Assembly: GCA_964353555.1 (NCBI GenBank)
Contig: CAYGWM010000001.1
Coordinates: 3,659-67,658 of the forward strand
Origin: an uncultured Spirochaetales bacterium
GTDB taxonomy: Bacteria; Myxococcota_A; UBA9160; PR03
Reading direction: 5' to 3'
Length of the DNA stretch: 64,000 bases
Part shown: piece by piece, positions 7,171-38,363 of the stretch
How the letters are laid out: each line of letters opens with the position of its first letter
Position numbering within the stretch: position 1 is the first letter of the stretch
Made by a program: the position numbers and the translations under genes
The notes under the pieces: generated by a model
Told to the model about the DNA's origin: nothing
Seen by the model: only the letters and a program-made list of their open reading frames with translations
Database searches by the model: none

Positions 7171-9954
7171 ATGAAGATGGCGACGCCGGCGATCGACGTC
7201 GCTCAGCTGGCGTCGTGGCTCGCGCGCGTTGGGCCGGTCGCGATCGTCGATCTCGAGACGACCGGACTGCCGAACGATCCGGGCGCGCGCATCCTCGAGT
7301 TCGCGGCGCTGCTACTCGATCCCGGCGATGCGAAGCTGCGCGCCGTCGCGACGCTGATCCATCCCGAAGCACCGATCCCGCCCGCGATCCAGCGCCTCAC
7401 CGGCATCAGCGACGCGCTGGTGTCGGACGCGCCGCCGCTGGAAACGGTGCGCGACGCGCTGCGCGAACAGCTCCGCGGCCGCACGATCGTCGCGCACAAC
7501 GCGGATTTCGAGCGCCACTTCCTCGCGCGCTGGATCGGCGGTGAGCTCGCGAACGCCATCTATCTCGACACGCAAGACCTGCTCGCCGTCGCGCATCCCG
7601 ACGCGCCGGACCTGCGCCTCGAGGGCTTCACGCGTTCGATGTTCGGCACCGAGGAGCGTCACCGCGCACTCGACGACGCTTCGGACACGCTGCGCGTGAT
7701 GGCGCGCATCGCGTTCGGCGCCCGCGCGGGCGAACCGCGCTATGCCGCCGCGCGCGCCGCGCTCTCGAAGTACGCGCCCGATTCGCCGTGGCTCGCGCTG
7801 CTGGAGAGCGAAAGCGACGCGCGCAACGCGCCCGAATCGCGCGCCTTCGTCGAGATCGGCGCGAGCGACGAGCCGGTGGTCGAGTTCGACGAAGCGGCGA
7901 TTGCCGCTTCGCTGCGCGACGCCGCGCGCGGCGCGCGTCACTTCCCGGGCTACCGCGTGCGCGAAGCACAGGTCGAGCTGGCGCTGCGCTTCGCCCGCGT
8001 AATGGAACACGGTGGCCGCGTGCTCGTCGAAGGCGGAACCGGCGTCGGGAAGTCGCTCGCGTATCTGGCCGCGGCGATTCCCTTTGCGATGCGGGAAGCG
8101 GAACGCGCGAAGGAAGCGGGAGTGCGCGCGCGCCCGGTCGTAGTCTCGACGCGTACCAAGCTGCTGCAGGATCAACTGCTTTCGAAGGACATCCCCGCCG
8201 CCGCGCGCTTCCTCGGCTACCCGTCGCTGCGCGCGGTGTCGATCAAAGGCCGCGCGAACTACGCATGCGAGCGTCGCCTGGCTGCAGTGTTGGCCGAGGC
8301 GCGCGAGGCGCAGCTCTTTCCGGAGCAGCGGCAGGCCTACGCGGTGCTCGCCGCGTGCGCGTCGATCCGTCCGCATGGCGAACTCGGCTCGGTGCCGGCC
8401 GCCTGGTTGCGGCGCCACCCGCCGCTGCTCGATCTGCTGCGCCGCTCGGTCGCGACGCGCGCCGAGCAGTGCACGCGCGAACAGTGCGCGATGCACCCGC
8501 ACTGCGCGTTCGGTCGGCGCCGCGCAGCGCTGGCGCAGGCGCACCTGGTCGTCGCGAATCACGATCTGCTGCTGCGCTGGCCGCCCGATTACCCGGCGTT
8601 CGCGCACGCGATCGTCGATGAAGCGCACGAACTCTCCGACGTCGCCGACGAAGTGTATGCGCTCACCGTGCGTCCCGATGAAGTGCTCGAACGCATCGAC
8701 GACGTCTTCGGAAGGCCCGATCAAGCCGCGCGGCGCGAAGGCAGCGACGGCATGCTGCCCGCCTCGAAGCGACGCGCGCTGCGCAAGGACGCAGTCGCGT
8801 GGCGGCGCGCCGTGCAGCAAGAACTCGTCGCGCTCGGCCGCTCGCTCGAACCGCTCGCGAGCGAGTTCGGCGAGGTGCAGGTGCCCGAACACGCAGGGCC
8901 GCACTTCGAGGCTGCGGCGCACTGCGCCGAGATTGCCGCGCTGCGCATCGACGAGGTGTCGCGCGAGATGGAGGCGGCCGTCGATCCCGAAGAGTCGAAC
9001 GGCGGCATCGCGCGCAACGCGACCGAACTGCGCGGCGCCGCGAGCGCGTTGCGGCTCGCGTTCCAGGGCGCCGAAGACTCGGTCGCGTCGTTCGACGGCA
9101 TCGACGCGCCGTGGGATCGCTGGCGGCTCGCGGTGCGGCTGGTCTCGCCGGCGTCCGCATTCCGCGAAAACTTCCTCGAACGCCTCGAGTCCTTCGCCGG
9201 CGTCTCGGCGAGCCTCTTCGTCGGCGGCGACGCGTTCGCGGCGCTCGGCGAGATCGGCGTGACCGGCGGCGGCACGGAAGTGGAAACGCTGTCGGTCCCG
9301 AGCCCGTTCCCGTACGAGAAACACATGCGCGTCGCGGCGCTTTCCGGCGGCGCCGACCTGGTGCGCGAAACGGTGGACGTGCTCGCAACGCTCGCGCGTC
9401 ACCTCGGCGGTCGCACGCTCGGCCTCTTCACCAGCTTGCGGCGCATGAACGACGTCGCCGCTCTGCTCGCCGAGCGGCTGCGCGACGACGGCATCGAAGT
9501 GCTCGCACCGCGCCGCGCCTCGGACGACCCGAGCGCGCTGGTCGAACGCTTCCGCCAGGGTGGCGCGGTACTGCTCGGCGCGCGCAAGTTCTGGCAAGGG
9601 CTCGACCTGCCGGGCGAGCAGCTCCAGGCCGTCGTGATCGAGAAGCTGCCGTTCGAAGTACCCACAGAATTGCGGCGCCGCCGCGAGCTGCGCTTGAAGC
9701 GCGAGGGCATCGACGCCTTCGAGCGTTTCGCGCTCGGCAAGATGCTGCTGAACCTGAAGCAGATGGTGGGGCGCTTGATCCGCAGCGAAGACGATCGCGG
9801 GATCGTCGTGCTGGTCGAGTCGCGGCCGGAGAAGCGCTACTTCCGCCGCCTCGGCGACGCGCTGCCGCCGGGCTCGCGCGTGGTGCTGGCGGAGCCCGAA
9901 GACCTCGTCGCGCTGCTCACCGAAGTGGGAATCGGCGCTGCGGACGGCTGCTAG
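7171..9954 (+). CDS. dinG: DinG-family ATP-dependent DNA helicase with N-terminal DnaQ-like 3'-5' exonuclease domain
   Basis: Exo motifs 'IVDLETTGL', 'AHNADFERHFL' and 'HRALDDA'. Walker A 'GTGVGKS', DEAH box 'VDEAHEL', and four Cys ('YACERR', 'EQCTREQCAMHPHC') typical of the XPD/DinG Fe-S domain. ATG at 7171; the ORF-track 5' extension from 6871 overlaps the previous gene. Confidence 0.85.
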   Translation: MKMATPAIDVAQLASWLARVGPVAIVDLETTGLPNDPGARILEFAALLLDPGDAKLRAVATLIHPEAPIPPAIQRLTGISDALVSDAPPLETVRDALREQLRGRTIVAHNADFERHFLARWIGGELANAIYLDTQDLLAVAHPDAPDLRLEGFTRSMFGTEERHRALDDASDTLRVMARIAFGARAGEPRYAAARAALSKYAPDSPWLALLESESDARNAPESRAFVEIGASDEPVVEFDEAAIAASLRDAARGARHFPGYRVREAQVELALRFARVMEHGGRVLVEGGTGVGKSLAYLAAAIPFAMREAERAKEAGVRARPVVVSTRTKLLQDQLLSKDIPAAARFLGYPSLRAVSIKGRANYACERRLAAVLAEAREAQLFPEQRQAYAVLAACASIRPHGELGSVPAAWLRRHPPLLDLLRRSVATRAEQCTREQCAMHPHCAFGRRRAALAQAHLVVANHDLLLRWPPDYPAFAHAIVDEAHELSDVADEVYALTVRPDEVLERIDDVFGRPDQAARREGSDGMLPASKRRALRKDAVAWRRAVQQELVALGRSLEPLASEFGEVQVPEHAGPHFEAAAHCAEIAALRIDEVSREMEAAVDPEESNGGIARNATELRGAASALRLAFQGAEDSVASFDGIDAPWDRWRLAVRLVSPASAFRENFLERLESFAGVSASLFVGGDAFAALGEIGVTGGGTEVETLSVPSPFPYEKHMRVAALSGGADLVRETVDVLATLARHLGGRTLGLFTSLRRMNDVAALLAERLRDDGIEVLAPRRASDDPSALVERFRQGGAVLLGARKFWQGLDLPGEQLQAVVIEKLPFEVPTELRRRRELRLKREGIDAFERFALGKMLLNLKQMVGRLIRSEDDRGIVVLVESRPEKRYFRRLGDALPPGSRVVLAEPEDLVALLTEVGIGAADGC

Positions 9955-11590: not shown

Positions 11591-12056
11591 TCGTAATCGG
11601 CTCCGAGACCAGCGGTGGCTCGTGCGGCACGTGGTCCTTGTCGCCGAGCACAAGCTGGAGCGTGTGCTTGCCGGGCGTCAGTGCGGCGTTGGTCTCGGTC
11701 TGACCGCCGCCGAAATGAAGGTGCTTGTCGTCCTTCGGGAGCGGCACATCGAGGGCCGGCAGCTCGGAGTCGATGATCAGGTGGTGGTGACCGGTGTTCG
11801 GCGTCGCGACGCCCGCCGGCGCGACGCCCATGCCGATGAGTCCGAAGCGCACCGTCACCGGACTCGAAACCGTTTCGCCGTTTGCGGGCGAGATGAGGTA
11901 AAGCTTCGCGTCGGCGGGACGCGGCGTGCGCACGATCGCGTTGGCGGCCGCGGCTCTTGGTGCGGCCTCCTCCGCGCGTGCAGCAGGCAGCGCGGCGAAC
12001 GCGACGAGCACGACGGCGAGCGCCGAGACCGAGACGAGGCGGACGTGAAGGCTCAT
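11577..12056 (-). CDS. secreted DUF4399-like protein
   Basis: C-terminal 159 aa of ORF 11577..12635. Signal peptide 'LVSVSALAVVLVAFAALPAARA', then the 'NTGHHHLIID' and 'HLHFGGGQTE' motifs I associate with DUF4399. ATG at 12056. Confidence 0.6.
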   Translation of the reverse strand: MSLHVRLVSVSALAVVLVAFAALPAARAEEAAPRAAAANAIVRTPRPADAKLYLISPANGETVSSPVTVRFGLIGMGVAPAGVATPNTGHHHLIIDSELPALDVPLPKDDKHLHFGGGQTETNAALTPGKHTLQLVLGDKDHVPHEPPLVSEPITITVK

Positions 12057-14022
12057 GGCATCTCCCTTCGATGACGACAGCGATCCTACGCGATCACCGG
12101 TCGTGCTGAAAGCACGACGCGGGAACGCCGTCGCGATCGCGGCCGCGCTGCTGCTGCTCTTTGCGACGCTCGTCGCGTTGCGGCTGCACGGATTCTCGCT
12201 GGCGGCCTGGCACGAGGTGATCGACGGCAGCGCACCCAGCGAGGTGCTTCTCGGCGAGCCGCGGATGATCCGCTCCGACGACTGGAAGGTGCATCTGCCG
12301 CTGCTACTCGCGCAGACCGCGCAGACGCCGCGCTTCCCGGTGGTGAATCCGAGCGTCGGTCTCGGACAGAGCATGCTGCTGCCGGTCGACGCACTGGTCG
12401 CGCATTGGGTTGCGCTGTTCCGCCCGACGATGTGGGGATTCCTGCTCGGGCCCGACACGGGGATCGCGTGGCTGTGGTGGAGTCGCGTGCTCGGGCTCTT
12501 CGGGGTCTGGTTCGCGGTGTTGGCGGTGGTGACGCGCGGGCGTTTCGCACCTGCGGCGACCGGTGCTGCGCTTCTCGCGTGCGCGCCGTTCTTCCAGTTC
12601 TGGGCGTTCAACAGCGCGCCGCAGGTGACCAGCATGGGCGCGGCGTTCCTCGCGACGGTCGCGCTTGCGCGCGCGAAAGAATGGCGCTCGATCGTCGCGG
12701 CTGCGCTCGCGCTCGCGCTGTCGGGCGCATGGTTCGCGCTGTCGATCTATCCGCCGTATCAGGTGACGCTCGGCTGGCTCTACGTCGCGCTAGTAACGGG
12801 CTGGCTGCTCGATGCACGAGACGAGTTGCCGCTGCGCAATCACGTTGCGCTGCGTGCGCTCGCGCTCGCTGCGGCCGGTGTCAGCGTCGTCGCCGTGGTC
12901 GCCGCGTTTGCGTCCGATGCGAGTGATGCGATCGCGCTGATGCGCGACACCGCGTACCCCGGCCGCCGGATGTCGACCGGTGCCGAGCGCAACCTCGCGG
13001 AGCTGTGGAACACCAACCTCGGCGCACCGCTGTGGGCCGAGAAGTGGGGCCCGCTCTTCAACATCTGCGAGGCCGCGTCGTTCTGGATGCTATCGCCAGT
13101 GCCGATCACGTTGTTGCTGTGGCGCCGCACGCGCGGCGAGCGCATCGATGCGCTGACGGCGACCATCGCTCTCTACGCAGTTGTGATGACGCTCTACGCG
13201 CTGATCGGAGTTCCAACGTTCCTCGCGCGCGTGACGGCGCTGGGTTTCGTGCCTGGCAGGCGGGCCGTGATCGGGATCGGCATCGCCGATGCGATTCTGC
13301 TGGTGCGTTTCGCCGCGTGCAGCGCTGCTGCGCGACGCGAAGAGCGCGGGCGCGTGTTGGCAATCGCGCTCGCGTGGTTCGCGGTGCTGGCGGGCTGCTC
13401 GTTTTGGCTCGCGCGCGAGCTGCCCGATGCGCGGCTTCCGGTGCTGCTCGCGTTCGCGTTCGGGAACGCCGTGCTCGCAGCGTTCGTGCTGTGGATGCCG
13501 CGCAGCGCACTATTGGCGCTCGTCGCGCTGTCAGCGATCAGCACGCTGTGGTTCAACCCGCTTGCGGTGGGCGGCGCCGCCTATCTGCGCGACAACGCGC
13601 TCGCCCAGAAGATCACCGAGATCGATCGCGCGGAAGGCGGCGACACCACCTGGGTTTCGTTCGGTCGCGACGACCTGCCGAACTTGTTCCGCGCGATCGG
13701 CGTGCGCGCGCTGAACGGCGTCCACCCGATCCCGCAGCTCGCGCTGTGGAAGCGCATCGACCCCGCCGGCCGCTTTCGCAACGTCTACAACCGCTACGCG
13801 CACATCGCATTTGCCGCCGTGTCGTCGGGCGAGCCGCGCTTCCAACTCCATTCGCAGGACTACGTGATCGTGCAGATCCGCCCGAACTCCGACGAGTTCC
13901 GCGCGCTCGGCGTCACCCACGTGCTCGTCCGCGACGACGCAGCCGCCGCCTTCGAGCGCCTGAGCGGCTTCGAGCCCCTCGCGACGATCGGCCCAAACCA
14001 CCTATACCACGTCCCGAAGTAG
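12055..14022 (+). CDS. large polytopic membrane protein (655 aa), candidate GT-C-like glycosyltransferase/polymerase
   Basis: More than 10 hydrophobic helices followed by a soluble roughly 170-aa C-terminal domain. Sits in a glycosylation neighbourhood. Family not recognised, and the start is uncertain because it overlaps the divergent gene's start codon. Confidence 0.6.
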   Translation: MASPFDDDSDPTRSPVVLKARRGNAVAIAAALLLLFATLVALRLHGFSLAAWHEVIDGSAPSEVLLGEPRMIRSDDWKVHLPLLLAQTAQTPRFPVVNPSVGLGQSMLLPVDALVAHWVALFRPTMWGFLLGPDTGIAWLWWSRVLGLFGVWFAVLAVVTRGRFAPAATGAALLACAPFFQFWAFNSAPQVTSMGAAFLATVALARAKEWRSIVAAALALALSGAWFALSIYPPYQVTLGWLYVALVTGWLLDARDELPLRNHVALRALALAAAGVSVVAVVAAFASDASDAIALMRDTAYPGRRMSTGAERNLAELWNTNLGAPLWAEKWGPLFNICEAASFWMLSPVPITLLLWRRTRGERIDALTATIALYAVVMTLYALIGVPTFLARVTALGFVPGRRAVIGIGIADAILLVRFAACSAAARREERGRVLAIALAWFAVLAGCSFWLARELPDARLPVLLAFAFGNAVLAAFVLWMPRSALLALVALSAISTLWFNPLAVGGAAYLRDNALAQKITEIDRAEGGDTTWVSFGRDDLPNLFRAIGVRALNGVHPIPQLALWKRIDPAGRFRNVYNRYAHIAFAAVSSGEPRFQLHSQDYVIVQIRPNSDEFRALGVTHVLVRDDAAAAFERLSGFEPLATIGPNHLYHVPK

Positions 14023-14040: not shown

Positions 14041-14152
14041 GAGAAAGGGGACGGTCCTGGGCGAGGACGGGCTGAGGACTGGAGGGACACACCTCGGCAA
14101 GTGTGTCCCTCCAGTCCTCAGCCAGGTCACTTCGAGGACCGTCCCCTTTCTC
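14041..14152. terminator. nested perfect inverted repeats (about 112 nt) between convergent genes; putative bidirectional terminator
   Basis: The inner stem 14074-14092 'gaggactggagggacacac' pairs perfectly with 14101-14119 (19 bp, 8-nt loop). It is extended by ggct/agcc. The outer stem 14041-14058 'gagaaaggggacggtcct' pairs perfectly with 14135-14152 (18 bp). No clear U-tract. Confidence 0.55.
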
Positions 14153-15047
14153 CTCCGATGCTGGCGAGGAAGTGCAGCTTGCGGAGAGCGGCGCGACCGC
14201 GCAGCGAGACGAGGTCGGTGGCGATTCGGGCGGCGAGGTGCAGGCGCACGATCGCTTTGCCTTCGGCGACGCGCGCGGCGTCGCGAAAGCCGCGTTCGCG
14301 CGCGCGCGCGGCGATCCAGTCCATCACTGCGACTTCTTCTTGGAAGCGCGAGAGATCTTCGGTCTGCACGGCGGTCGCGCTCTCGGCGTGACGCCGGTAG
14401 GCGTAGGCACGGCGCCGCGTGCCGGCGATCGACTCGCCGTCTAGCAGCAGGCGCGCGAGCATCTCGAGGTCTTGCGCCTGCTTCAGGCCGGCTTCGAAGC
14501 GGCGCGCGCCGAGACGCTCGCGCCGCCACGCGAGCGTTGGACACATCACGAAGTCGGCGCGCGCGAGTGCGCGCAGGCCCGATTCGCCTTCGATCTGCCA
14601 CGGTTCACCGCGCGGGACGAGGCGGCGCTTCACCGCGTCGGCGAGCGAAAAGCGCGGGCGGCCCTGCGCATCGATGATCTCCGCGTCGCAGCACAGCGCG
14701 ACCGCGCGCGGGTGGGCGTCGGCCAGCGCGAAGATCACGTCGCAGTAGTCCGGCAGCAGCCGGTCGTCGGCGTGCAGCAGCGTGACCCACTCGGTCGTGG
14801 CGAGGTCGAGGCCGCGGTTCCAGTTTCCGACGATCCCGAGCGTCGTCTGGTTGTCGTGGTACGTGATGCGCGCATCGCCGAAGCGAGCGACGAGATCTGC
14901 GACGCCGCCCGGCTCGCCGCGGTCGTCGAGCACGATGCAGCGCCACCTGATGACGCGCTGGTCTCGCACGCTCTCGATCGTTTCGCGCAGATAGCCGAGG
15001 CCGCGGTGGAACGGAATCGCGAAGGTGATGCGCGCGGCGGTGCTCAT
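14127..15047 (-). CDS. family-2 glycosyltransferase (soluble)
   Basis: C-terminal 306 aa of ORF 14127..15926: 'ITFAIPFHRGLGYLRETIESVRDQ', 'IVLDDRG' and 'LLHADDRLLPDY' (GT2 DxD region). ATG at 15047. Confidence 0.8.
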   Translation of the reverse strand: MSTAARITFAIPFHRGLGYLRETIESVRDQRVIRWRCIVLDDRGEPGGVADLVARFGDARITYHDNQTTLGIVGNWNRGLDLATTEWVTLLHADDRLLPDYCDVIFALADAHPRAVALCCDAEIIDAQGRPRFSLADAVKRRLVPRGEPWQIEGESGLRALARADFVMCPTLAWRRERLGARRFEAGLKQAQDLEMLARLLLDGESIAGTRRRAYAYRRHAESATAVQTEDLSRFQEEVAVMDWIAARARERGFRDAARVAEGKAIVRLHLAARIATDLVSLRGRAALRKLHFLASIGGERGRSSK

Positions 15048-15074
15048 CGCGGCGCGGAGACTACAATCGCCCGC

Positions 15075-15671
15075 GTGGAGCCGCCGCGCGATACCCGGGA
15101 AGCCGCCTACGCCGAGCGCCTCGAGCGCCTCGCGGGCGCGCGCTGGAAGCGCTGGTTCGACGTGCAGCGGCCCTATCGCTGGAACCTGCGGCGCCTCGCG
15201 CTCGGCCGCACACTGGAGATCGGCTGCGGAATCGGGCGCAATCTCGCCTCGCTCGCCCCCGCTGCCGTCGGAATCGACCACAACGCGCACGCGGTCGAGA
15301 TCGCGCGCGCGCGCGGCTTTCGCGCCTTCTTGCCCGATGCGTTTTGCGCGTCGGCCGACGCGGCGCTGCCCTTCGACGCGCTGCTGTTCGCGCACGTGCT
15401 CGAACACATGACGCGCGCCGATGCGGCCGCACTGGTAGCGCAGTGGCTCCGCCATCTGCGCCCGGGCGGAAAGGTACTGCTGATCACGCCGCAGGAGGCC
15501 GGTTTTCGCTCGGACCCGAGCCACGTCGAGTTCATGGACTTCGACGCGCTGCGCGCGCTTCTCGAGGATGTGGGATGCGAGACGCTGGGCGCGTACTCGT
15601 TCCCGTTCCCGCGACTCGCCGGCCGCGTGTTCCCGCACAACGAGTTCGTGGTGCTGGGGCGGCGCCGCTAG
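15075..15671 (+). CDS. class I SAM-dependent methyltransferase
   Basis: C-terminal 198 aa of ORF 14472..15671. Motif I 'LEIGCGIGRN', plus 'LLFAHVLEHM' and 'LRPGGKVLLITP'. GTG at 15075 is the first start that does not overlap the divergent GT2. Confidence 0.7.
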   Translation: MEPPRDTREAAYAERLERLAGARWKRWFDVQRPYRWNLRRLALGRTLEIGCGIGRNLASLAPAAVGIDHNAHAVEIARARGFRAFLPDAFCASADAALPFDALLFAHVLEHMTRADAAALVAQWLRHLRPGGKVLLITPQEAGFRSDPSHVEFMDFDALRALLEDVGCETLGAYSFPFPRLAGRVFPHNEFVVLGRRR

Positions 15672-17902
15672 AAACGCCGGCGCCGCCGCAGGGAGTCGGC
15701 GCCGCTCGCGACGGCCACAACCGCGAGCGTGCTCCAACTGATTGCCGTGAGCAGCAGATAGCTGGAGGGTTCGTATCTGAAGCGCACGTGGTTCACGCCC
15801 GCGTGCACGCGCACGGCCCGGAACAGGAAGTCGCCGCCTAAGACGGGAACCTCCGCGCCGTCCACCGTCGCACGCCACGAGCGCGCCCAGCGGTCGGTGA
15901 CGAGGATCCATCCCGCCCTCGGGCAATCCACGTCGATCGCGAGCTCTTCGGGCGTGTAGCGCTCGACGACCGCGGCGATCGGCTGCGCGGCGGGGAAGGT
16001 GGACGGATCGGGGAGTACGGCGTCTTCGGAAGTCGCGCCGAGCATGGTCTCACGGCGGTGTAATACGAGAGGAAGTGACTGGATCTGCTCCGCACGCGCG
16101 ACGAAGCGCCGCCAGGCCTCGTCGTTCAGCGGGATCTCGGGTGCTTCGCTCGCGAACCAGGTGCGCGGTCGCCCGCGCTCTTGCTGGAGAGCGGCCGACA
16201 GCAGTACCGGGATGTCGAGCCAGCGCTCGTGGAAGCTGTTGCGGAGCGAATCGTAGCCGCGAAACGTCGCGATCTTGAGGGCGACGTTCATGCCGCTCGG
16301 CTCGCCACCGAATTGCGTTTCGAGCATGCGCGTGAGCCCGTTCGGGGTGAGATCCAGGCTCGGCGAGCGTAGCCCCTCGAGGCCGCTCCACGCGAAGAGC
16401 AGTCCCCGGTGCGTGCTGTAGAGGGTGGGCGAGAGAGTGTGGGTCACGACTGCGTCGATCGACACCATAAAAAGTAGAGCGAGCGCAGCCAGCCCATGGC
16501 GCCGTCGTTCGAGCGCGGGGCCCACCAGCGGAAAAGCCGCGATGCCGAGCCAGACGCTCACGACGTGAAGGCGCGCCAAGCGGGCATTCGCGCCGGAATA
16601 CGAGGCTTCTCGCACGACCCAGGCAAATGCCGCGATCGCGACGAGTGCCGCTCCGGCCGAGACCACCGCGAAGCGTCGCCACGGCGCACGGTCGCCGTTC
16701 GCGAGCGCGCGCCACAGATCGGTCGTTCCGCACGCCGCGAGCACGACCACTGCGAACATCGTGTAGACGCGGAAGAGCGCCGCGTGGCGAAAGAAGCGCG
16801 AGGGCGGGAAGAGGTCGTAGAGCCAGCCGCGCAACGGAGTCGCGTCGCCGACGGCGAGCGCCGCAGAGAGTGCGGCGAGCGCGACGAGTCCGACGCGGAA
16901 ACGACTCCGTGTGCCGCTCGCGACTGCGAAGAGCGCGAGACACAGAACGGCCGCGCCGCAGTAGAGGCTGCACATCGTCACGTCCGTGCGCGGCCACAGT
17001 CGCGGGTTCGCGAGTTTCACCGCGAGTAGATGCGGACTCGCGAACGTCGCGAACGCCCCAGGGTCCAGCGCGTCCGATCCGATCGCGACCTCGCGCGTCT
17101 TCGGGCCGCTGGAGCCGCTGTAGCCGGTGGTCTCGTGCAGGATCGCCGTGTAGGCCGGCGCGAGAACGATCCCGCCGACGATCCCGAACGTCAGCGCGAT
17201 CGCTCCGGCACGCATCGGGGAGCTACCACGCCATCGCAGCGCCACCCAACTCGCTGCGAAGGCCGGATTCAAGATCGTCATCGCCGGATAGCCAGACAGC
17301 GCGGAGAGCCCCCAGAGCGCGCCCGCCTGCGCCGCCGGCAACAGCCATCGCTCCTCTCGCGCGGCGACGTCGAGTCGCAGCAGGATCAGCGGAAGATAGC
17401 TGAACGAGATCAGGATCGGCACGTGCTGCGCCTGTCCCACGTAGAGTCCGCAGTAGAGCCAGCCGATCGCCGGAACGAGGGCGCCCCACGGCGGAGCGCC
17501 GAGTCGCGCTGCGAGCGCGAGGATGCCGAGTCCGCCCAGCAGCCAGTGCGAGAGCCAGAGAATCGTGAAGCCGCGTGCCGATCCGCCGGTCCACGCGCCG
17601 AGGGCAACCGACACCGGCGAGAAGGTGCCCGACTGCGGATCTGCGAAGGAGGGCGAGCCTGCCTGCGTCCACGGATTCCAGAAGAGCAAGCGACCGGCTC
17701 GCGCGTGATCGGCCAACAGGATCTGGTTCGGCGCATGCAAGTCACGCGCGTCCCACGCCGGCACCCCGGCGCCCGCGACGAGACGATTCTCGATTGCAAA
17801 GAACAACGCGCAGAGCCACAGAACCGCGAGCAGCCACGCGCCGCGGCGCGTCCGACGGTTGGTTGCTCCGTTCGCCTCGCCTTGCACAGATCCAGAATGC
17901 AC
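15668..17902 (-). CDS. YfhO-family polytopic membrane protein (putative lipid-carrier-dependent glycosyltransferase)
   Basis: 744 aa with many TM helices. The C-terminal beta-rich domain ends in a last TM ('WRATVDGAEVPVLGGDFLFRAVRVHAGVNHVRFRYEPSSYLLLTAISW'), the architecture I associate with YfhO. GTG start lies 3 nt after the upstream GT2 stop. Confidence 0.7.
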   Translation of the reverse strand: MHSGSVQGEANGATNRRTRRGAWLLAVLWLCALFFAIENRLVAGAGVPAWDARDLHAPNQILLADHARAGRLLFWNPWTQAGSPSFADPQSGTFSPVSVALGAWTGGSARGFTILWLSHWLLGGLGILALAARLGAPPWGALVPAIGWLYCGLYVGQAQHVPILISFSYLPLILLRLDVAAREERWLLPAAQAGALWGLSALSGYPAMTILNPAFAASWVALRWRGSSPMRAGAIALTFGIVGGIVLAPAYTAILHETTGYSGSSGPKTREVAIGSDALDPGAFATFASPHLLAVKLANPRLWPRTDVTMCSLYCGAAVLCLALFAVASGTRSRFRVGLVALAALSAALAVGDATPLRGWLYDLFPPSRFFRHAALFRVYTMFAVVVLAACGTTDLWRALANGDRAPWRRFAVVSAGAALVAIAAFAWVVREASYSGANARLARLHVVSVWLGIAAFPLVGPALERRRHGLAALALLFMVSIDAVVTHTLSPTLYSTHRGLLFAWSGLEGLRSPSLDLTPNGLTRMLETQFGGEPSGMNVALKIATFRGYDSLRNSFHERWLDIPVLLSAALQQERGRPRTWFASEAPEIPLNDEAWRRFVARAEQIQSLPLVLHRRETMLGATSEDAVLPDPSTFPAAQPIAAVVERYTPEELAIDVDCPRAGWILVTDRWARSWRATVDGAEVPVLGGDFLFRAVRVHAGVNHVRFRYEPSSYLLLTAISWSTLAVVAVASGADSLRRRRRF

Positions 17903-17905
17903 TCG

Positions 17906-18865
<960 letters not shown>

Positions 18866-18949
18866 GCCGGCCAAGGATACATCCTCCGTTGCACGCGCCG
18901 ACCTACGGCCAAATTGCCCAGCGGTTGCTCGTCGCAATCAATGTCGCGG

Positions 18950-20416
18950 TCAGCCGCGCACGAAGCGGTAGTCGTGCCAGTTCGGGTGGCGCGTGCGCCG
19001 CCAGTAGTCGGTCGTGAAGCCGGACCAGTTGTTGACGACCTTGCCGGAAGCGGTCTTGTACCAACTCGCGCATCCGGCGGTCCAAGCGGTCTTCGCGAGC
19101 GCCGCTTGGAGATCGCGGTTGTAGCGGTCCATCACGTCGCGACGCACGTCGAGCCACGAGACATGGCGCCTCTGCAGTTCCTGGATGCACTGCACCGCGT
19201 AGCCGACCTGGCACTCGATCATGAAGATGATGGAGTTGTGGCCGAGGTTGGTATTCGGGCCGTAGAGCATGAACAGGTTGGGGAAGCCTGCGACCGTCAC
19301 GCCCAGGTACGCCTCGGCGCCGCCGCGCCATATTTCGTCGAGCTTCGCGCCGCCGAGACCTTCGATCGCGAGCGGCGCCAGGAACGTGGTGGTCTCGAAG
19401 CCGGTGCCGAAAACGATCGTGTCGGCCGGTCGCGCGACGCCGTCCTTCGTGACCACCGCGTCGCGCGTCACCTGCACGATCGGCTCGTCGACGACTTCGA
19501 CGCTCTGCCGCACCAACGCCTGGTAGTAGTCGTCGGAGATCAGGATACGCTTGCAGCCGATCGGATAGTCGGGCGTGAGCTTCGCGCGCAGCACCGGGTC
19601 GCTCACTTGCGCATGCAGGTACTCGGTCGCGATGCGGGTCATCCGGCGCGAGAACCAGCTATCGCGCAGGAACGCCAGGAAGCGGATCTCGAGCATCGAC
19701 CAGATGAACGCGCGCACTGTGCGCAGCAGCAGCGGATGGCGCCGGAAGCGCGCCTTGTCGGCTTCGCTGAACTTGCGGTCGTTGCGAGGGATCACCCAGT
19801 TGGCCGAGCGCTGGAAGACCGTCACCCGCTCCGCGGTCTTCGCGATTTCCGGGATGAACTGCAGCGCGCTCGCGCCGTTGCCGATCACCGCGACGCGCTC
19901 GCCGCTCGTATCGTGCTCGTGGTTCCAGCGCGCCGAGTGGAAGCTCGTGCCCTCGAACGACGACAGACCCGGAATCTCCGGGAAGTGCGGGCGGTTCAGT
20001 TGTCCGAGTCCGGAGACCAGCGCCTTCGCGGTGATCTCTTCGTCGGCGCTGGTGCGGATGCGCCATACGCCCGCGTGCTCGTCGAAGCTCGCGCCCGCGA
20101 TCTCGGTGCCGAAGCGGATCTGCGCGAGGATCTGGTACTTCTCCGCGCAGTGGCGCAGATAGCGCTGGATCTCCGGTTGCGGCGAAAATGCGCGACTCCA
20201 CTCCGGATTCGGCTCGAACGAGAACGAGTAGAGATGCGAGGGAACGTCGCAGCCGGAGCCCGGATACGAGTTGTCGAGCCAGGTGCCGCCGACGTCTTGC
20301 GACTTCTCGAAGATCTCGAACGACGGGATGCCTGCCTTGCGGAGCTGAATCGCCATACAGAGGCCCGACACGCCCGCGCCGAGAATCGCGACTTCCAAAT
20401 GCTGCCGGTTCGCCAT
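18950..20416 (-). CDS. type I Baeyer-Villiger / flavin-containing monooxygenase
   Basis: FAD Rossmann 'ILGAGVSGL', NADPH Rossmann 'VIGNGASA' and BVMO fingerprint FxGxxxHxxxW present as 'FEGTSFHSARW'. Confidence 0.85.
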   Translation of the reverse strand: MANRQHLEVAILGAGVSGLCMAIQLRKAGIPSFEIFEKSQDVGGTWLDNSYPGSGCDVPSHLYSFSFEPNPEWSRAFSPQPEIQRYLRHCAEKYQILAQIRFGTEIAGASFDEHAGVWRIRTSADEEITAKALVSGLGQLNRPHFPEIPGLSSFEGTSFHSARWNHEHDTSGERVAVIGNGASALQFIPEIAKTAERVTVFQRSANWVIPRNDRKFSEADKARFRRHPLLLRTVRAFIWSMLEIRFLAFLRDSWFSRRMTRIATEYLHAQVSDPVLRAKLTPDYPIGCKRILISDDYYQALVRQSVEVVDEPIVQVTRDAVVTKDGVARPADTIVFGTGFETTTFLAPLAIEGLGGAKLDEIWRGGAEAYLGVTVAGFPNLFMLYGPNTNLGHNSIIFMIECQVGYAVQCIQELQRRHVSWLDVRRDVMDRYNRDLQAALAKTAWTAGCASWYKTASGKVVNNWSGFTTDYWRRTRHPNWHDYRFVRG

Positions 20417-20426
20417 CAGGGCGACG

Positions 20427-21173
20427 CTAACTCATGGTGAGGCCGCCGCTCACCGAGAGCGTCTGGCCGGTGATGTACGCCGCTTCGTTCGAAGCGAGGA
20501 ATGCCACCGCGGGCGCGATGTCGTCTGGCCGGCCGAGGCGCCGCATCGGGATCGCGCGTTCGAGTGCCTGGGTGATGCGGTCGCCGTCGTCGGTGGACTC
20601 GGCGAGCCCGCGGAACAGCGGCGTATCGGTGGGACCCGGGCACACGCAGTTCGCGGTGATGCCGTGGCGCACGACTTCGCGCGCGATCGACTTCGCGAGC
20701 GCGAGGAGGCCTCCCTTCGCCGCCGCGTAGATCGCTTCGCCGGAAGACCCGACGCGTCCCGCGTCCGACGACACCAACACGATGCGGCCAAAGTTCGCGT
20801 CGATCATGTCGGGCAACACCGCGCGCGCAACGCGGATCGGCCCGCCCAGATTGATCTCCAGCACGCGCGACTGGAACGGCTCGTCAGTCTCGATGAACGG
20901 GCGCATCAGGTCCCAGCCGGCGCACGAGACCAGCACGGTCACCGGGCCGAGGCGATCGCGTACCGCGGCGAGCGCAAGGTCGACCGAATCGGGGTCGGCG
21001 ACGTCGATCGGCACGCCGAGCCCGCCGAGTTCCGCCGCGAGCAGTGCGGCGCCCTCGCCGTCGAGATCGGCGACCGCCACCGTGCGACCTTGTGCGGCGA
21101 GCGCGCGACACACCGCCGCGCCGATCGCGCCGGCCCCGCCGGTGACGAGTGCAACGCGCGGGCTTCCGGTCAT
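20427..21173 (-). CDS. short-chain dehydrogenase/reductase (BadH/FabG-like)
   Basis: 'VTGGAGAIGAA' and the catalytic 'SSDAGRVGSSGEAIYAAAKGG' Ser...YxxxK arrangement, 248 aa. Confidence 0.85.
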   Translation of the reverse strand: MTGSPRVALVTGGAGAIGAAVCRALAAQGRTVAVADLDGEGAALLAAELGGLGVPIDVADPDSVDLALAAVRDRLGPVTVLVSCAGWDLMRPFIETDEPFQSRVLEINLGGPIRVARAVLPDMIDANFGRIVLVSSDAGRVGSSGEAIYAAAKGGLLALAKSIAREVVRHGITANCVCPGPTDTPLFRGLAESTDDGDRITQALERAIPMRRLGRPDDIAPAVAFLASNEAAYITGQTLSVSGGLTMS

Positions 21174-21177
21174 CGCG

Positions 21178-21975
21178 TCACTTCCTGTGTTTGGAGAAGT
21201 CTGGCTTTCGCTTCGCGGCGAACGCTTCGACGCCTTCGCGCGCCTCGGGCGTGTCCACGAACAGATCGAGGCCCGCGAACGCGAGCGTGCCGATGCCGGC
21301 GATCGATTCGGTGTCGGCGTTGAACGAGTGCTTCAGGAAGCGCAGCGCGGTGGGACTCTTCTCGAGGATCTCGTCTGCCCAGCGACGCACTTCGGCGCGC
21401 AGCTCTGCGCTGGGTACGACCACGTTCACGAGGCCCCAGTTCAGCATCGTCGCGGCGTCGTATTGGCGGCACAGGTACCAGACCTCGCGCGCGCGTTTGT
21501 CGCCGAGGATGCGGGCGAGGTACGCGGAGCCGAAGCCCGCATCGAACGACCCGACGCGCGGACCGGCCTGTCCGAAGCGCGCGTGCTCGGCGGCGATCGT
21601 CAGATCGCAGAGGACGTGCAGCACGTGACCGCCGCCGATTGCGATGCCGTTCACTGCGGCGATGACCGGCTTCGGAATGTCGCGGATCACGCGGTGCAGT
21701 GTCTCGATCTCGAAGAGGCCCGACTCGGACGGCCCGTAGTCGCCCGTTTCTTCGCGCTGCTTCTGATCGCCGCCCGCGCAGAATGCCTTGTCGCCCGCGC
21801 CGGTCAGCACGACGACGCCGACGCTCGCGTCCGCCCACGCCGCCTTGAAGCAGGCGATCAGTTCATCGACGGTGTGCGCGCGGAATGCGTTGTAGCGTTC
21901 GGGCCGGTTGATGGTGATCCACGCGAGTCCGCGCTCGACTTCGTAGGCGACGTCGGTGAGCGCGGCCGGGTTCAC
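21178..21975 (-). CDS. crotonase-superfamily enzyme of the MenB / BadI (Dieckmann / retro-Dieckmann) subfamily
   Basis: C-terminal 265 aa of ORF 21178..22920. 'AFCAGGDQK', 'NGIAIGGGHVLHVLCDLTIAAEHARFGQAGPRVGSFDAGFGSAYLAR' and 'KRKPDF' are near-canonical MenB-family blocks. GTG at 21975 overlaps the upstream stop (GTGA). Confidence 0.85.
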   Translation of the reverse strand: MNPAALTDVAYEVERGLAWITINRPERYNAFRAHTVDELIACFKAAWADASVGVVVLTGAGDKAFCAGGDQKQREETGDYGPSESGLFEIETLHRVIRDIPKPVIAAVNGIAIGGGHVLHVLCDLTIAAEHARFGQAGPRVGSFDAGFGSAYLARILGDKRAREVWYLCRQYDAATMLNWGLVNVVVPSAELRAEVRRWADEILEKSPTALRFLKHSFNADTESIAGIGTLAFAGLDLFVDTPEAREGVEAFAAKRKPDFSKHRK

Positions 21976-23183
21976 GCGAGCGTCAGCTCCAGCACCGCAT
22001 CGAGCGCGGGCCACAGGTCTTCTTCCGGAATGTTCAGCGCCGGAAAGAGTCGCAATACGGTGCCAGCCGTGACGTTCACCAGCACGCCGCGATCGATCGC
22101 GCGGCGCGAGAGCGTGGCGGCGGCGTCCGCATCGAGCAGGTCCATGCCGAGCAGCAGGCCGCGACCGCGCGCGCGCGCCGCGACCTTCGGATGCGACGCC
22201 GCGAAGCGTTCGAGGTGGGCGAGCACGCGCGCGCCGAGTTCCGCGGTGCGCTCGACGAGGCCATCTTCTTCGATCACGCGCAGCACCGTGTTCGCCGCCG
22301 CGCACGCGAGCGGGTTGCCCGCGTAGGTGCCGCCGTGATCGCCGAGCGACACCGTCTTCGACACATCCTCGGTGCACAAGAAGCCCGCGATCGGGAAGCC
22401 GCCGCCGAGTCCCTTGCCGAGCGTGATCGCGTCGGGAACACACTCCAATGCTCCGGAGGCCTTCGCGTCGTGTTCGAGCGCGAGCCACTTGCCGGTGCGG
22501 CCGATGCCGGTCTGGATCTCGTCGAGCACCAGCAGCGCGCCGGCGTTGCGGGTCAGCTCGCGCAGGCCGGCGAGGTAGCCGGGCGGCGCGACGTTGACGC
22601 CGCCTTCGCCCTGCACCGGTTCCACCACGAATGCGGCGGTGTTCTCGCCGATCGCGCGGCGCGCGGCGTCGAGATCGCCGAACGGAACGAAGCAGCCCTG
22701 CTGCACGATGCGCTGGTACGGCGAGCGGTGTTTCTGCTGCCCGATGATCGACAGCGCACCGAGCGTGCGGCCGTGGAACGACTGCGTGGTCGAGACGAAG
22801 AGCGTCCGGCCCGTCGCGCGGTGCGCGAGCTTCAACGCGCCGTCCATCGCCTCGGCTCCCGACGAGACGAAGAAACAGCGCGTCAGCGCATCGGGCACCA
22901 CGCCGAGCAGCCGCTCGCACAGATCGAGCTGCGGCAGCGTGTAGAAGAGATTGGTGGTCTGCATCAGCCGGCCGGCTTGCTCGGCGATCGCCTCGACCAG
23001 CGCCGGGTGCGAGTGGCCGATCGCGGTGACGCCCCAGCCGCCGGTGAGGTCGACGTACTCATGCCCGTCGGCGTCCTGCACGCGCGAGCCACGGCCCGAT
23101 GCGATCGCGACCGGCAGGCGCTTCACGACCGGCAGGAAGCTGCGCGCCTCGCGCGCCACGATGTCGTCGAAATGCGTGCCCAA
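21972..23183 (-). CDS. class-III PLP aminotransferase (acetylornithine/GABA aminotransferase family)
   Basis: 403 aa. 'FVSSGAEAMDGALKLA', 'DEIQTGIGRTGKW' and the Schiff-base Lys context 'DAITLGKGLGGGFP'. Confidence 0.85.
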   Translation of the reverse strand: MGTHFDDIVAREARSFLPVVKRLPVAIASGRGSRVQDADGHEYVDLTGGWGVTAIGHSHPALVEAIAEQAGRLMQTTNLFYTLPQLDLCERLLGVVPDALTRCFFVSSGAEAMDGALKLAHRATGRTLFVSTTQSFHGRTLGALSIIGQQKHRSPYQRIVQQGCFVPFGDLDAARRAIGENTAAFVVEPVQGEGGVNVAPPGYLAGLRELTRNAGALLVLDEIQTGIGRTGKWLALEHDAKASGALECVPDAITLGKGLGGGFPIAGFLCTEDVSKTVSLGDHGGTYAGNPLACAAANTVLRVIEEDGLVERTAELGARVLAHLERFAASHPKVAARARGRGLLLGMDLLDADAAATLSRRAIDRGVLVNVTAGTVLRLFPALNIPEEDLWPALDAVLELTLA

Positions 23184-23269
23184 TCATCCTCCGCGCCGAT
23201 CCGGGTCGAGCGTCGGTCGAGATTCGAGGCTCGCGCCGGCTGCGTCAACCCCGCTACGCTGGGAATGCG

Positions 23270-24283
23270 ATGAATCCCCCCGCTACGATCGACCCCCTGC
23301 TCACCGACGGCTGGAACCGCTCGATCACGAATCTCCGCATCTCGGTGACGGATCGCTGCAACTTCCGCTGCGTCTACTGCATTCCCGACGAGAACATCGA
23401 GTGGTTGCCGCGCGGGCAGATCGCGTCGCTCGAAGAGCTGGGACGCATCGCGCGAATCGCCGTCGGGCTCGGCGTGCGCAAGCTGCGCATCACCGGCGGC
23501 GAGCCGCTGCTGCGCAAGAACCTGCCGAGTTTGATCGCCGAGCTGGCGGCATTGCCGGGTCTCGACGACATCGCGCTGACGACGAACGGCACCGAGCTGC
23601 CGCGCCTCGCACGCGATCTCGCCGAAGCGGGGCTCGAACGCGTCAACGTCAGTCTCGACTCGCTCGATCGCGCCACCTTCGTGAAGCTCGCGCAGCGAGA
23701 CATGCTGCCGGACGTGCTGGCCGGCATCGACGCCGCGGTCGATGCCGGCCTGACGCCGCTCAGCATCAACTGCGTCGCGATCCGCGGCACCAACGACCAC
23801 GAAGCGGTGGCGTTCGCGCGTTTCGCCCGCGAGCGCGGCTTCGAAGTGCGCTTCATCGAGTTCATGCCGCTCGAACACGGTCAGCGCTGGGGCGAACACG
23901 CGCTGGTGCCGGGCCACGAACTGCGCGATCGCGTCGACGCGGTGTTCCCGCTGAAGCCCGCGCCCGACCAGGACCCGCACGCGCCGAGCAAGGACTGGAT
24001 CTTCGCCGATGGCGCGCCGGGTGTGATGGGTTTCATCGATTCCGTCAGCGCGCCGTTCTGCGAAACCTGCAACCGCATTCGCCTCACCGCCGACGGCAAG
24101 CTGCGCACGTGTCTGTTCTCGCTGAACGAGCACGACCTCCTCGGCCCGATCCGCGCTGGCGCTTCGGACGAGCAGGTCGCCGCGCTGCTGCGCGCCGCCG
24201 TCAGCACCAAGGAGCTCAAGCACAACATCACCGACGGCCTGTTCGTGAAGCCGCAGCGGACGATGTCCCAGATCGGGGGCTAG
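23270..24283 (+). CDS. moaA: GTP 3',8-cyclase (radical SAM)
   Basis: 'LRISVTDRCNFRCVYCIP' (CxxxCxxC), 'ITGGEPLLR' and the C-terminal second-cluster 'CETCNRIRLTADGKLRTCLF'. ATG at 23270 inside ORF 23099..24283. Confidence 0.9.
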   Translation: MNPPATIDPLLTDGWNRSITNLRISVTDRCNFRCVYCIPDENIEWLPRGQIASLEELGRIARIAVGLGVRKLRITGGEPLLRKNLPSLIAELAALPGLDDIALTTNGTELPRLARDLAEAGLERVNVSLDSLDRATFVKLAQRDMLPDVLAGIDAAVDAGLTPLSINCVAIRGTNDHEAVAFARFARERGFEVRFIEFMPLEHGQRWGEHALVPGHELRDRVDAVFPLKPAPDQDPHAPSKDWIFADGAPGVMGFIDSVSAPFCETCNRIRLTADGKLRTCLFSLNEHDLLGPIRAGASDEQVAALLRAAVSTKELKHNITDGLFVKPQRTMSQIGG

Positions 24284-27004: not shown

Positions 27005-27178
27005 GTTGACTCGTGTTGACTCGGGGACGCGTTGACTCGGGGACGTTCGTTGCGCCGGTTGACTTGGGGACGTTGGTTGCGCGAGTTGCGTCCAGGAACG
27101 TCCCCAACGCAAACGGCGCAACCAACGTCCCCAACGCAACTCGAGCAACGAACGTCCCCGACGCAACGGCGCGTGCTA
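27005..27178. repeat. palindromic array of 27-nt repeats (about 3.5 forward units, then 3 inverted units)
   Basis: Forward units are 27031-27057 GTTGACTCGGGGACGTTCGTTGCGCCG and 27058-27084 GTTGACTTGGGGACGTTGGTTGCGCGA, with partial units at 27005 and 27015. Inverted units are 27098-27124, 27125-27151 and 27152-27178 (ACGTCCCC[A/G]ACGCAAC...). A 17-bp perfect stem pairs 27066-27082 with 27116-27132, and a 15-bp stem pairs 27039-27053 with 27145-27159. Confidence 0.8.
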
Positions 27179-27198
27179 GGTTCCGGGGGGCGCGCAGT

Positions 27199-28461
27199 AT
27201 GCGAGGATGTTTGGTGGATCTGCCGTCGGCCGATGCTTCGCTTTCGGTCCGCGAGGTCGAGTCGATCACGCAGGGCGCCGTGGATGTCGGTCGTCTCGAG
27301 CGCGCGCCTGCGGAGCGACTTGGGCGCCAGCTGCTCGCCGATGCGCGCATTCTCGAAGCGGTCGCCGCGGCGGCTGCGGACGCGAAGCAGCGCTCGCGCG
27401 GCGCGGTCGTCACCGTCGCGCGCAATGTGTTCATCCCGCTGACGAACCTGTGCCGCGACCGCTGCACGTACTGCACCTTCGCGAAGCGACCCGGCGACGC
27501 CGGCGCGAAGTCGTACACGCTGGCGGAAGTGGCCGAGGTTTCGCGAAATGCTGCGAGCGCGGGTTGCACCGAGGCGCTCTTCTGTCTGGGCGACAAGCCC
27601 GAGCTCGCGTTCGAGAGCTATCGCGACTGGCTCGCGGCGCAGGGCTACCCGAGCACGGCCGCGTATCTGGTCGAGGCGTGTCGCGTGGCGGCTATGCAGG
27701 GGATGCTCCCACACACCAACGCGGGGCTGCTCACGCAGCAGCAGATGGACGCGCTGCGGCCGTGGAACGCGTCGATGGGACTGATGCTCGAGACCACCAG
27801 CGAGCGACTGTGCCAGAAGGGCGGGGCGCACCACGCCGCGCCCGACAAGAAGCCGGAGCTGCGGCTGCGCATGCACCGCGAAGCCGGCGAGCTTCGCGTC
27901 CCGTTCACGACTGGAATGCTGATGGGCATCGGCGAGACGACCGACGAGCGCGTCGACACGCTGTTCGCAATTCGCGAACTCTCGGATCGCTACGGCCACA
28001 TCCAGGAAGCGATCATCCAGCCGTTCCATCCCAAGACCGCGACCAAGATGAGCGAGCGCCCGACACCGGAAGAGGACGATGTGGTCGGCTGGGTCGCGCT
28101 GGCGCGGCTCGTGCTCGGCCCCGATGTGAGCGTGCAAGCGCCGCCGAACCTGGCGAACCTGTCCGGTGATCGATTGCTCGACCGCCTGCTCCGCGCCGGC
28201 GCCGACGACTTCGGCGGCGTCTCGCCGATGACGATCGATTTCATCAACCCGGAAGCGCCGTGGCCGAAGCTCGATACGCTGCGCCGTCGCACCGAAGCGG
28301 CCGGCCAGACGCTGCGCGAGCGGCTGCCGGTATATCCAGAATTTCTGACGAGCAAGCCCGACTACTTCGATGCTTCGATGCGCGAGCGCTGCGAAGCGCT
28401 CGCCGACAGGACCGGCTACGCACGCACGCGCGCCACCGCGCAAAGCGAGGAAGCGGCATGA
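27199..28461 (+). CDS. cofG: 7,8-didemethyl-8-hydroxy-5-deazariboflavin (FO) synthase subunit 1
   Basis: 'NVFIPLTNLCRDRCTYCTF' radical-SAM motif, 'EALFCLGDKPE', 'LPHTNAG' and 'GMLMGIGET'. The first ATG is at 27199, but the true start could be further downstream because the N-terminal region is about 60 aa longer than I expect. Confidence 0.8.
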   Translation: MRGCLVDLPSADASLSVREVESITQGAVDVGRLERAPAERLGRQLLADARILEAVAAAAADAKQRSRGAVVTVARNVFIPLTNLCRDRCTYCTFAKRPGDAGAKSYTLAEVAEVSRNAASAGCTEALFCLGDKPELAFESYRDWLAAQGYPSTAAYLVEACRVAAMQGMLPHTNAGLLTQQQMDALRPWNASMGLMLETTSERLCQKGGAHHAAPDKKPELRLRMHREAGELRVPFTTGMLMGIGETTDERVDTLFAIRELSDRYGHIQEAIIQPFHPKTATKMSERPTPEEDDVVGWVALARLVLGPDVSVQAPPNLANLSGDRLLDRLLRAGADDFGGVSPMTIDFINPEAPWPKLDTLRRRTEAAGQTLRERLPVYPEFLTSKPDYFDASMRERCEALADRTGYARTRATAQSEEAA

Positions 28462-30835: not shown

Positions 30836-30881
30836 AGCCGGATTGCGCGGAAGAGCGTCGCGCCATTGAGGCTCGGCATCC

Positions 30882-38353: not shown

Positions 38354-38363
38354 GCGGTGCCAG

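Follow-up and report, generated by a model that had tools for sequence, protein, structure and literature searches.

Six genes that follow one another on the minus strand in a 64,000-nucleotide stretch of DNA from an uncultured, Gram-negative member of the Myxococcota (contig CAYGWM010000001.1, positions 3,659 to 67,658; hereafter the window) raise the question of whether alicyclic coenzyme A (CoA) chemistry and envelope glycosylation are joined there in one pathway or simply lie side by side. The run occupies 15668–23183, in a window of ~68–70% G+C, and consists, in order, of a class-III aminotransferase (AT), a crotonase (ECH in the gene orders below), a short-chain dehydrogenase (SDR), a type I Baeyer–Villiger monooxygenase (BVMO), a family 2 glycosyltransferase (GT2) and a 744-aa membrane protein of the GT-C type. 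A preliminary description of this DNA had presented the run as a fusion of alicyclic/CoA-ester chemistry to a GT2–YfhO glycosylation pair, with the reservation that two adjacent operons might be parted at an 84-nt gap. The six head-to-tail open reading frames (ORFs) with tiny spacers that it reported are all present, and the coordinates and the gaps between successive genes (−4, 4, 10, 84 and 3 nt) match exactly. Five of its six family labels were recovered by family searches, while the YfhO label is weak at the sequence level.

The comparative data from relatives lead us to conclude that the run is probably two independent, ordinarily adjacent modules on one strand, split between the BVMO and GT2 genes. 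The first unit (18950–23183) would be a clade-conserved cassette of AT, BadI-type hydrolase, BadH-type dehydrogenase and BVMO, with BadH/BadI as its deep core. The second (15668–18874) would form the edge of a variable island of envelope-glycan genes that comprises the GT2 and GT-C genes, a methyltransferase gene, a second GT2 gene (GT2b) and a gene for a DUF7657/DUF7654 protein.

The closest proteins belong to uncultured Myxococcota, and synteny was assessed by look-ups anchored on the BVMO, the GT-C protein and the AT, together with a metagenome scan for the BVMO. Contigs of this clade (given L numbers here) have a common backbone in which CofG-CofH-CysI-FolB-MoaA precedes AT-ECH-SDR(-BVMO), which is followed by a variable segment and then by (DUF4399)-epimerase-SDR2-DinG-thiamine pyrophosphate (TPP) enzyme. 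What lies downstream of the BVMO differs from contig to contig. GT2 followed by GT-C was found in the window only. In L001 the GT2 gene is followed by a reversed acyltransferase gene and in L139 by GT2b, while the contigs L087 and L089 end inside GT2. A reversed methyltransferase gene precedes GT2 and GT2b in L088, a GH130-like gene and sulfatases take the place in L083, L168 and a JGI contig, a reversed DSBA gene does so in L166 and L169, and in L092 the backbone epimerase follows directly. The BVMO–GT2 junction is thus broken or replaced in six contigs (L088, L083, L092, L166, L168 and L169). Among BVMO homologs of less than 71% identity, none of the 52 assessable ones had a GT2 downstream. 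The six-gene order was seen in no other locus, and for every junction except ECH–SDR at least one member of the clade has a break. The headline of the preliminary description therefore did not hold, as the two halves are linked in the closest relatives only and the order that it proposed to look for in related genomes is not conserved. Its reservation about two adjacent operons is backed by the comparative genomics.

The same arrangements bear on the possibility that the six genes form one pathway, with an aminated or ring-opened alicyclic product that is attached to, or modifies, the envelope glycoconjugate made by GT2 and GT-C. The single strand, the short spacers and the failure to detect a promoter or terminator in the gap between the two halves would fit such a pathway, as would the recurrence of BVMO–GT2 adjacency in the closest relatives (L001, L087, L089 and L139, at a spacing of 9–88 nt). 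However, the GT-C gene follows GT2 in the window and L083 only, and in L083 the pair, its ~4-nt spacing kept, lies 6 kb from the BVMO behind four genes. A reversed gene stands between BVMO and GT2 in L088; L092, L166, L168 and L169 carry the BVMO or the whole cassette and no glycosylation genes; and L006 and L167 have the AT-ECH-SDR trio with neither the BVMO nor the glycosylation pair. Neither a chemical logic nor a literature precedent for a six-gene pathway was found, and we consider one very unlikely. We give as little credence to a narrower version, in which the BVMO, possibly with the whole cassette, has been captured functionally by the envelope-glycan island in this sub-lineage. In favour of it are the BVMO–GT2 spacers of 9–88 nt in five close contigs and the want of a promoter or terminator between these genes in the window. 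If that were true, an acyl product, oxygenated or ring-opened, would be delivered to the polyprenyl-linked sugar on which GT2/GT-C act, or to its acceptor, or would modify one of them.

The spacer between the two modules was inspected for signals. GT2 most likely starts at the TTG at 18874, judging from a GGAGGA 7 nt upstream and from its alignment with the TTG start in L001, and this start makes the spacer (18875–18949) 75 nt long rather than the 84 nt obtained with the ATG at 18865. A crude scan, not tuned to Myxococcota, found neither a sigma-70-like promoter nor a terminator-like hairpin in the spacer; the fold predicted for it is ordinary (z −1.45), with no U tract, and it has no Rfam match. 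Spacer length is not conserved either, being 84–88 nt in the window and L087, ~28 nt in L001 and ~9 nt in L139. The preliminary description had named two findings that would speak for separate operons, a promoter or terminator at 18866–18949 and a lack of conserved synteny between the halves. The second was found, while the first was not detected. Transcription of the run is inferred from these features: in this genome a single transcript may carry all six genes.

The window, L086, L091, L166, L168 and L169 have the complete four-gene order AT-ECH-SDR-BVMO, and parts of it can be seen on L087, L088, L103 and L121, which are short contigs. The BVMO gene directly follows the SDR gene in L086, L087, L088, L091, L103, L121, L166, L168 and L169, and the 4-nt overlap between AT and ECH seen in the window recurs in L001 and L168. 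The gap from SDR to BVMO stays at 6–50 nt. Cassette BVMOs diverge to 61–64% identity with spacers that are still 6–69 nt. Both flanks of the cassette are replaceable, since upstream of it L166 and L169 have an acyl-CoA dehydrogenase (ACAD) gene and an ABC operon of the molybdate type, and downstream the reversed DSBA gene. An early reading, in which the break fell between SDR and BVMO on the evidence of L001, L006 and L083, was revised; SDR–BVMO is the commonest arrangement in the metagenome and AT-anchored contigs. The L083 sequence covers only 1.5 kb upstream of its BVMO, and the trio may lie just beyond.

At the centre of the cassette is the crotonase (21178–21975), which overlaps the AT stop by 4 nt and for which the preliminary description had asked for a placement between MenB and BadI. 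It matches Pfam ECH_1 (E 1.8e-69), and its top NCBIfam models are MenB and BadI, both under cutoff. Against the MenB equivalogs it scores 353.1 bits where 380 is needed (NF005637) and 333.3 bits where 342.7 is needed (TIGR01929), and against the BadI equivalog (TIGR03210) 343 bits where 467.6 is needed. One explanation of these scores is that the enzyme is the organism's MenB, active in menaquinone biosynthesis, and that its neighbours, the SDR included, lie there by chance. The MenB models rank top and are missed by just 10–27 bits, the best PDB matches are MenB structures (E 4e-97), and the protein is ~60% identical to Bacillota MenB, with the fold and most active-site residues in common. 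When positions were mapped on Escherichia coli MenB, with residue roles taken from PMC3637252, the oxyanion glycines, Ser161, Asp163 and the bicarbonate-site Gly156 were all found to be kept. However, MenB Tyr258, a conserved catalytic residue supplied by the opposing subunit (PMC3637252), is replaced by Val240 in the window crotonase, and this position is Tyr in all 16 homologs encoded in men operons and Val, Thr or Gly in homologs from bad-type gene contexts. In an alignment whose groups were defined by gene context and which contained no experimentally characterised BadI sequence, 18 columns separated the 16 men-operon sequences cleanly from 26 bad-context sequences; the window crotonase has the bad-context residue at 17 of the 18 and the men residue at none. 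In a neighbour-joining (NJ) tree it groups with sequences from SDR/ACAD/ligase contexts and apart from the men-operon clade. The crotonase gene has no men-operon context, no homolog of MenA, MenC, MenD, MenE, MenF or MenH was found in the 64-kb window, and the enzyme has a conserved BadH-like partner. A role as the organism's MenB is thus extremely improbable, and from the tree position, the discriminating columns and the loss of Tyr258 the crotonase is classed by sequence as BadI-type, not MenB.

The gene contexts of crotonase relatives were collected in a scan that took one genome per species and gave 80 loci, in which the window proteins were placed by tblastn and the ORFs were clustered. 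Three contexts were found. Relatives of 58–60% identity in Bacillota and Chloroflexi lie in a menF-menD-menH-menB-menE-menC operon. Relatives of 57–74% identity in many Actinomycetota and in some Proteobacteria, Gemmatimonadota and others occur with a BadH-like SDR, acyl-CoA dehydrogenases and a CoA ligase, often preceded by a TetR gene; the actinobacterial homologs of 65–72% identity, for instance, lie in TetR | ECH-ACAD-SDR-ligase clusters. In the third context, in Myxococcota and Nitrospirales (78–88% identity), the SDR is often the sole partner. Overall, in 36 of the 80 loci, from several phyla, a homolog of the BadH-like SDR (45–67% identity) lies no more than ~3.5 kb away from the crotonase homolog. 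A BVMO, GT2 or GT-C gene was near none of the loci outside the clade. The ECH–SDR pair is the only link conserved across phyla, and it is there in the bad-ali clusters for cyclohexanecarboxyl-CoA.

The SDR (20427–21173) begins 4 nt past the crotonase. It is an adh_short protein whose best model is BadH (TIGR03206), at 287 bits (cutoff 431) and ~97 bits above the next family (190 bits), which bears out the earlier suggestion of a BadH-like SDR beside a MenB/BadI enzyme. The bad-ali pathway, which comprises AliA, AliB and BadK together with BadH and BadI, is known from Rhodopseudomonas palustris, Aromatoleum sp. CIB and numerous aerobes (PMC9795900), and the Actinomycetota clusters above match the Gram-positive form described in the same paper. 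The window resembles this pathway in that its SDR is BadH-type and adjoins a crotonase of BadI type. It differs in that neither the cassette nor the rest of the 64 kb holds a CoA ligase, an acyl-CoA dehydrogenase or a BadK-type hydratase, and in that the pair is accompanied by an ArgD-like AT and a BVMO instead.

The BVMO gene (18950–20416) starts 10 nt past the SDR gene and encodes a short form of 488 aa. The protein has an FMO-like Pfam match and carries the fingerprint FEGTSFHSARWN at residue 154, with Asn following the Trp, a second motif, GGTWLDNSYPGSGCD, at residue 43, and the dinucleotide-binding (GxGxxG) sequence GAGVSG at residue 13. Type I BVMOs were recognised by FxGxxxHxxxW[P/D], [A/G]GxWxxxx[F/Y]P[G/M]xxxD and two dinucleotide-binding motifs, and the window protein was counted as one of them. 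Its PDB matches are steroid monooxygenase, PAMO, CHMO and OTEMO (E 1e-68 to 1e-72), so that the earlier assignment to type I BVMOs stands on both motifs and on structural homologs at E ~1e-70. The strong homology and the two motifs are held in common with these solved enzymes, but the window protein is ~50 residues shorter than the crystallised ones, has Asn rather than Pro or Asp after the fingerprint Trp, and, unlike BVMOs of alicyclic ketones, has no esterase or lactonase partner nearby. Homologs of 54–70% identity lie in mostly unrelated contexts. In an NJ tree of BVMOs, which has no support values and includes short contigs, the cassette-linked proteins fall in two clades with unlinked ones interleaved; the tree was for these reasons not used as an argument for independent recruitment.

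The AT (21972–23183) is the first gene of the cassette and was identified through Pfam, NCBIfam and PDB as an ArgD/LysJ-like member of class III. It starts with a TTG that has GGAGGA 5 nt upstream, matches Aminotran_3 (E 3.6e-103) and has as its best NCBIfam family acetylornithine transaminase, although it remains below the curated ArgD cutoffs (NF002874, 395.8 bits against 457; TIGR00707, 378.2 against 410). Its nearest PDB chain is 1vef AcOAT/LysJ (E 2e-86). As the margin to the cutoff is narrow, the AT may on its sequence be a divergent ArgD. A BioA function, with a role between pimeloyl-CoA and biotin, was also considered and dropped, because the bioA model gives 238 bits against a cutoff of 405; no further biotin-synthesis genes turned up among the window genes scanned. 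Upstream, the MoaA ORF as listed (23099–24283) overlaps the AT start by 85 nt. Since the MoaA model matches from residue 68 only and the orthologs are 333–361 aa long, the true MoaA start probably lies near 23270, which would leave a divergent intergenic region of ~86 nt before the AT.

These properties of the AT enter into a more modest account of the cassette, in which there is no four-gene pathway at all. Only the BadI/BadH-type pair would then cooperate, the AT would be the genome's ordinary ArgD, the BVMO would be an unrelated neighbour, and the order would be kept by vertical inheritance in a housekeeping backbone that rearranges slowly. The AT does lie nearest the acetylornithine transaminases (396 bits, cutoff 457; top PDB chains ArgD/LysJ), and it is conserved across relatives to the same degree as MoaA (79–80% against 75–80%); MoaA–AT adjacency is moreover about as well conserved as SDR–BVMO adjacency. 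The AT–ECH and SDR–BVMO junctions are each interrupted in some relatives. The AT adjoins the crotonase in the Myxococcota clade only: outside it, an adjacent AT or BVMO was seen at none of the 80 loci, apart from an AT in L006. Only one of the 59 assessable BVMO homologs of less than 71% identity has an SDR upstream, and L006 and L167 have no BVMO. On the other hand, the tight spacing of the cassette survives the replacement of both of its flanks, and the BVMO is still found beside the SDR at 61–64% identity. We regard this account as unlikely, though it is one to be kept in mind, and prefer two independent modules, of which the first is a cassette of four genes.

Several observations weigh against the two-module interpretation, in its account of the cassette or of the split. 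A reversed gene separates SDR from BVMO in L001 and in the JGI contig, L006 and L167 have the AT-ECH-SDR trio without a BVMO, and the AT lies apart from the ECH gene in the JGI contig and in L121. The cassette contigs belong to one clade with a common housekeeping backbone, so that the synteny of the four genes could be mere inheritance. The crotonase and the SDR both score under the NCBIfam equivalog cutoffs of BadI and BadH. Queries from related loci revealed no AliA ligase, ACAD (AliB), BadK-like hydratase, CoA-transferase or TetR gene in the 64-kb window, and without an aliA, aliB or badK homolog there the substrate supply of the BadH/BadI pair is unexplained. Finally, the BVMO–GT2 spacer is only ~9–12 nt in L139 and L089, and with no detectable promoter or terminator in the 75–84-nt spacer of the window a single transcript is plausible in this genome.

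The two reversed genes that separate SDR and BVMO differ from each other. The one in L001, the closest genome assembly, lies at 8197–9849 and encodes a 550-aa protein with cNMP-binding and pyridine-nucleotide-disulfide oxidoreductase domains. At the same insertion spot the JGI contig has a different gene, for a 458-aa protein that matches no family.

In the chemistry that we propose for the cassette, substrates and reaction order are taken by analogy from the bad-ali pathway. The SDR would oxidise a 2-hydroxy-cycloalkane-1-carboxyl-CoA to the beta-keto thioester, and the crotonase would then open the ring hydrolytically, in a retro-Dieckmann reaction, to give a dicarboxylyl-CoA. The BVMO and the AT would be lineage-specific additions that presumably allow the cassette to take a wider variety of alicyclic ketones and amines. 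In the literature no AT-BadI-BadH-BVMO cluster was found described. A BadI/BadH-type pair that lacks its usual activating enzymes and is joined to an AT and a BVMO may point to a route, as yet undescribed, for alicyclic acids, ketones or amines. The cassette is nevertheless an unremarkable, if undescribed, variant of known chemistry. The main outcome is that a false lead has been removed, the apparent link between alicyclic-CoA chemistry and envelope glycosylation having come from a variable island inserted beside a conserved cassette.

On the other side of the split, the GT2 (17906–18874) is of the type of polyprenyl-phosphate sugar synthases such as GtrB, CsbB and ArnC. It matches Glycos_transf_2 (PF00535) at residues 5–167 (E 6e-21), has weak NCBIfam matches, all far under cutoff, to AglJ, PpgS and a dolichyl-P hexose transferase, and has hydrophobic segments at residues 242–263 and 275–302, which are two C-terminal membrane helices that complete the polyprenyl-phosphate GT2 architecture.

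The 744-aa protein is encoded 3 nt past GT2, at 15668–17902, and has ~10 transmembrane segments in its N-terminal part and one at the C terminus. At default thresholds it matches no family. At a lenient threshold the YfhO profile (PF09586) aligns with residues 673–722 only (E 0.0015, 17.5 bits against a cutoff of 28.5), a match to just the final 50 profile positions. Homologs of 40–45% identity reach 33–37 bits, above the YfhO cutoff, but cover profile positions 752–835 only; full-length homologs of 40–66% identity are common in metagenomes. An AlphaFold model built on a 32-sequence alignment has a pLDDT of 91.2 and a pTM of 0.91. With this model Foldseek returned ArnT (5f15, E 6e-5), then AftD, AftA, ALG3, PglB and STT3, with a probability of 1.0 for ArnT, AftD, AftA, ALG3 and STT3 and TM-scores of 0.33–0.45. 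Asp51, in the first loop, is invariant in the 32 aligned sequences. From the structural matches of the model and the profile coverage of the homologs, the protein is predicted to be a GT-C enzyme whose C-terminal domain is of the YfhO type; it is not a demonstrable member of PF09586. The label YfhO-like is thus appropriate for the C-terminal domain, and is compatible with the GT-C fold, while the score of the whole protein and its membrane core fail PF09586. It appears to represent a GT-C branch that has only the C-terminal domain in common with YfhO; neither this branch nor the cassette should surprise specialists.

Extracytoplasmic glycosylation systems such as CsbB/YfhO and GtrB/GtrC are known to have this layout, in which a GT-C enzyme comes after a membrane-anchored GT2 (PMC5836110, PMC8035078). 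The GT2 would put a sugar on polyprenyl phosphate at the cytoplasmic face, and the YfhO-like GT-C enzyme would move it to an acceptor outside the membrane. With its GT2 gene directly upstream of the GT-C gene the window resembles the systems for teichoic acids (CsbB/GtlA with GtcA and YfhO/GtlB), GtrA/B/C and ArnC/ArnT (PMC5836110, PMC8035078). It differs from CsbB/YfhO-type systems in that the transmembrane core of its GT-C protein misses the YfhO Pfam model and in that no GtrA/GtcA-type flippase was identified for the pair. Given the Gram-negative Myxococcota host, the acceptor would not be a teichoic acid.

Two further polytopic proteins of the window were compared with the GT-C protein. 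The C-terminal domain of ~115 residues also occurs in a 750-aa membrane protein encoded at 30870–33122 (30% identity, E 5e-10), which itself matches the end of the YfhO profile weakly. A 738-aa polytopic protein at 44683–46899 has no family match and no similarity to the 30870–33122 protein, and the GT-C protein has no similarity either to it or to the DUF7657 protein.

The minus-strand run is closed by a small class-I methyltransferase gene on the plus strand (15072–15671), which is convergent with the GT-C gene and overlaps it tail to tail by 4 nt. The product has Methyltransf_23/12/11/25 domains and a weak NCBIfam match to a DVU_1556-type methyltransferase. The longer plus-strand ORF at 14472–15671 (399 aa) is composite, in that its 5′ part is antisense to GT2b and only its 3′ part (~15072–15671) is the methyltransferase domain. 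GT2b itself lies on the minus strand at 14127–15050 and belongs to the variable glycan island. In L083 the gene after GT-C encodes a 334-aa GT2 to which the translation of GT2b from MSTAARITFAIPFHRG is homologous; GT2b also has NCBIfam glycosyltransferase matches, and copies of 76–84% identity are present in L001, L083, L088 and L139. The most constant member of the island is the polytopic DUF7657/DUF7654 protein, encoded on the plus strand at 12055–14022 (DUF7657, E 1e-89; DUF7654, E 2.5e-27); it is present in L001, L083 and L088 and absent from L006, L092, L166, L167 and L169, and could be another transferase of lipid-linked sugars. An alternative occupant of the variable segment is the GH130-like protein of ~467 aa (L083 3138–4541, L168 13236–14639), which has faint GH130/GH43/GH32 matches, directly follows the BVMO in three relatives and usually has sulfatases after it.

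The window is overall rich in envelope-sugar genes. At 37226–42478, genes for a GHMP kinase, an NAD-dependent epimerase/dehydratase, the alpha and beta subunits of a TPP-dependent E1 enzyme and a DegT/DnrJ/EryC1 aminotransferase are co-directional, and this sugar-modification cluster may provide the many glycosyltransferases nearby with an unusual amino sugar. CofG and CofH (27013–29705) both score above their NCBIfam cutoffs, so that the host appears to make the F420 precursor FO, and the pair occupies the same backbone position in L167.

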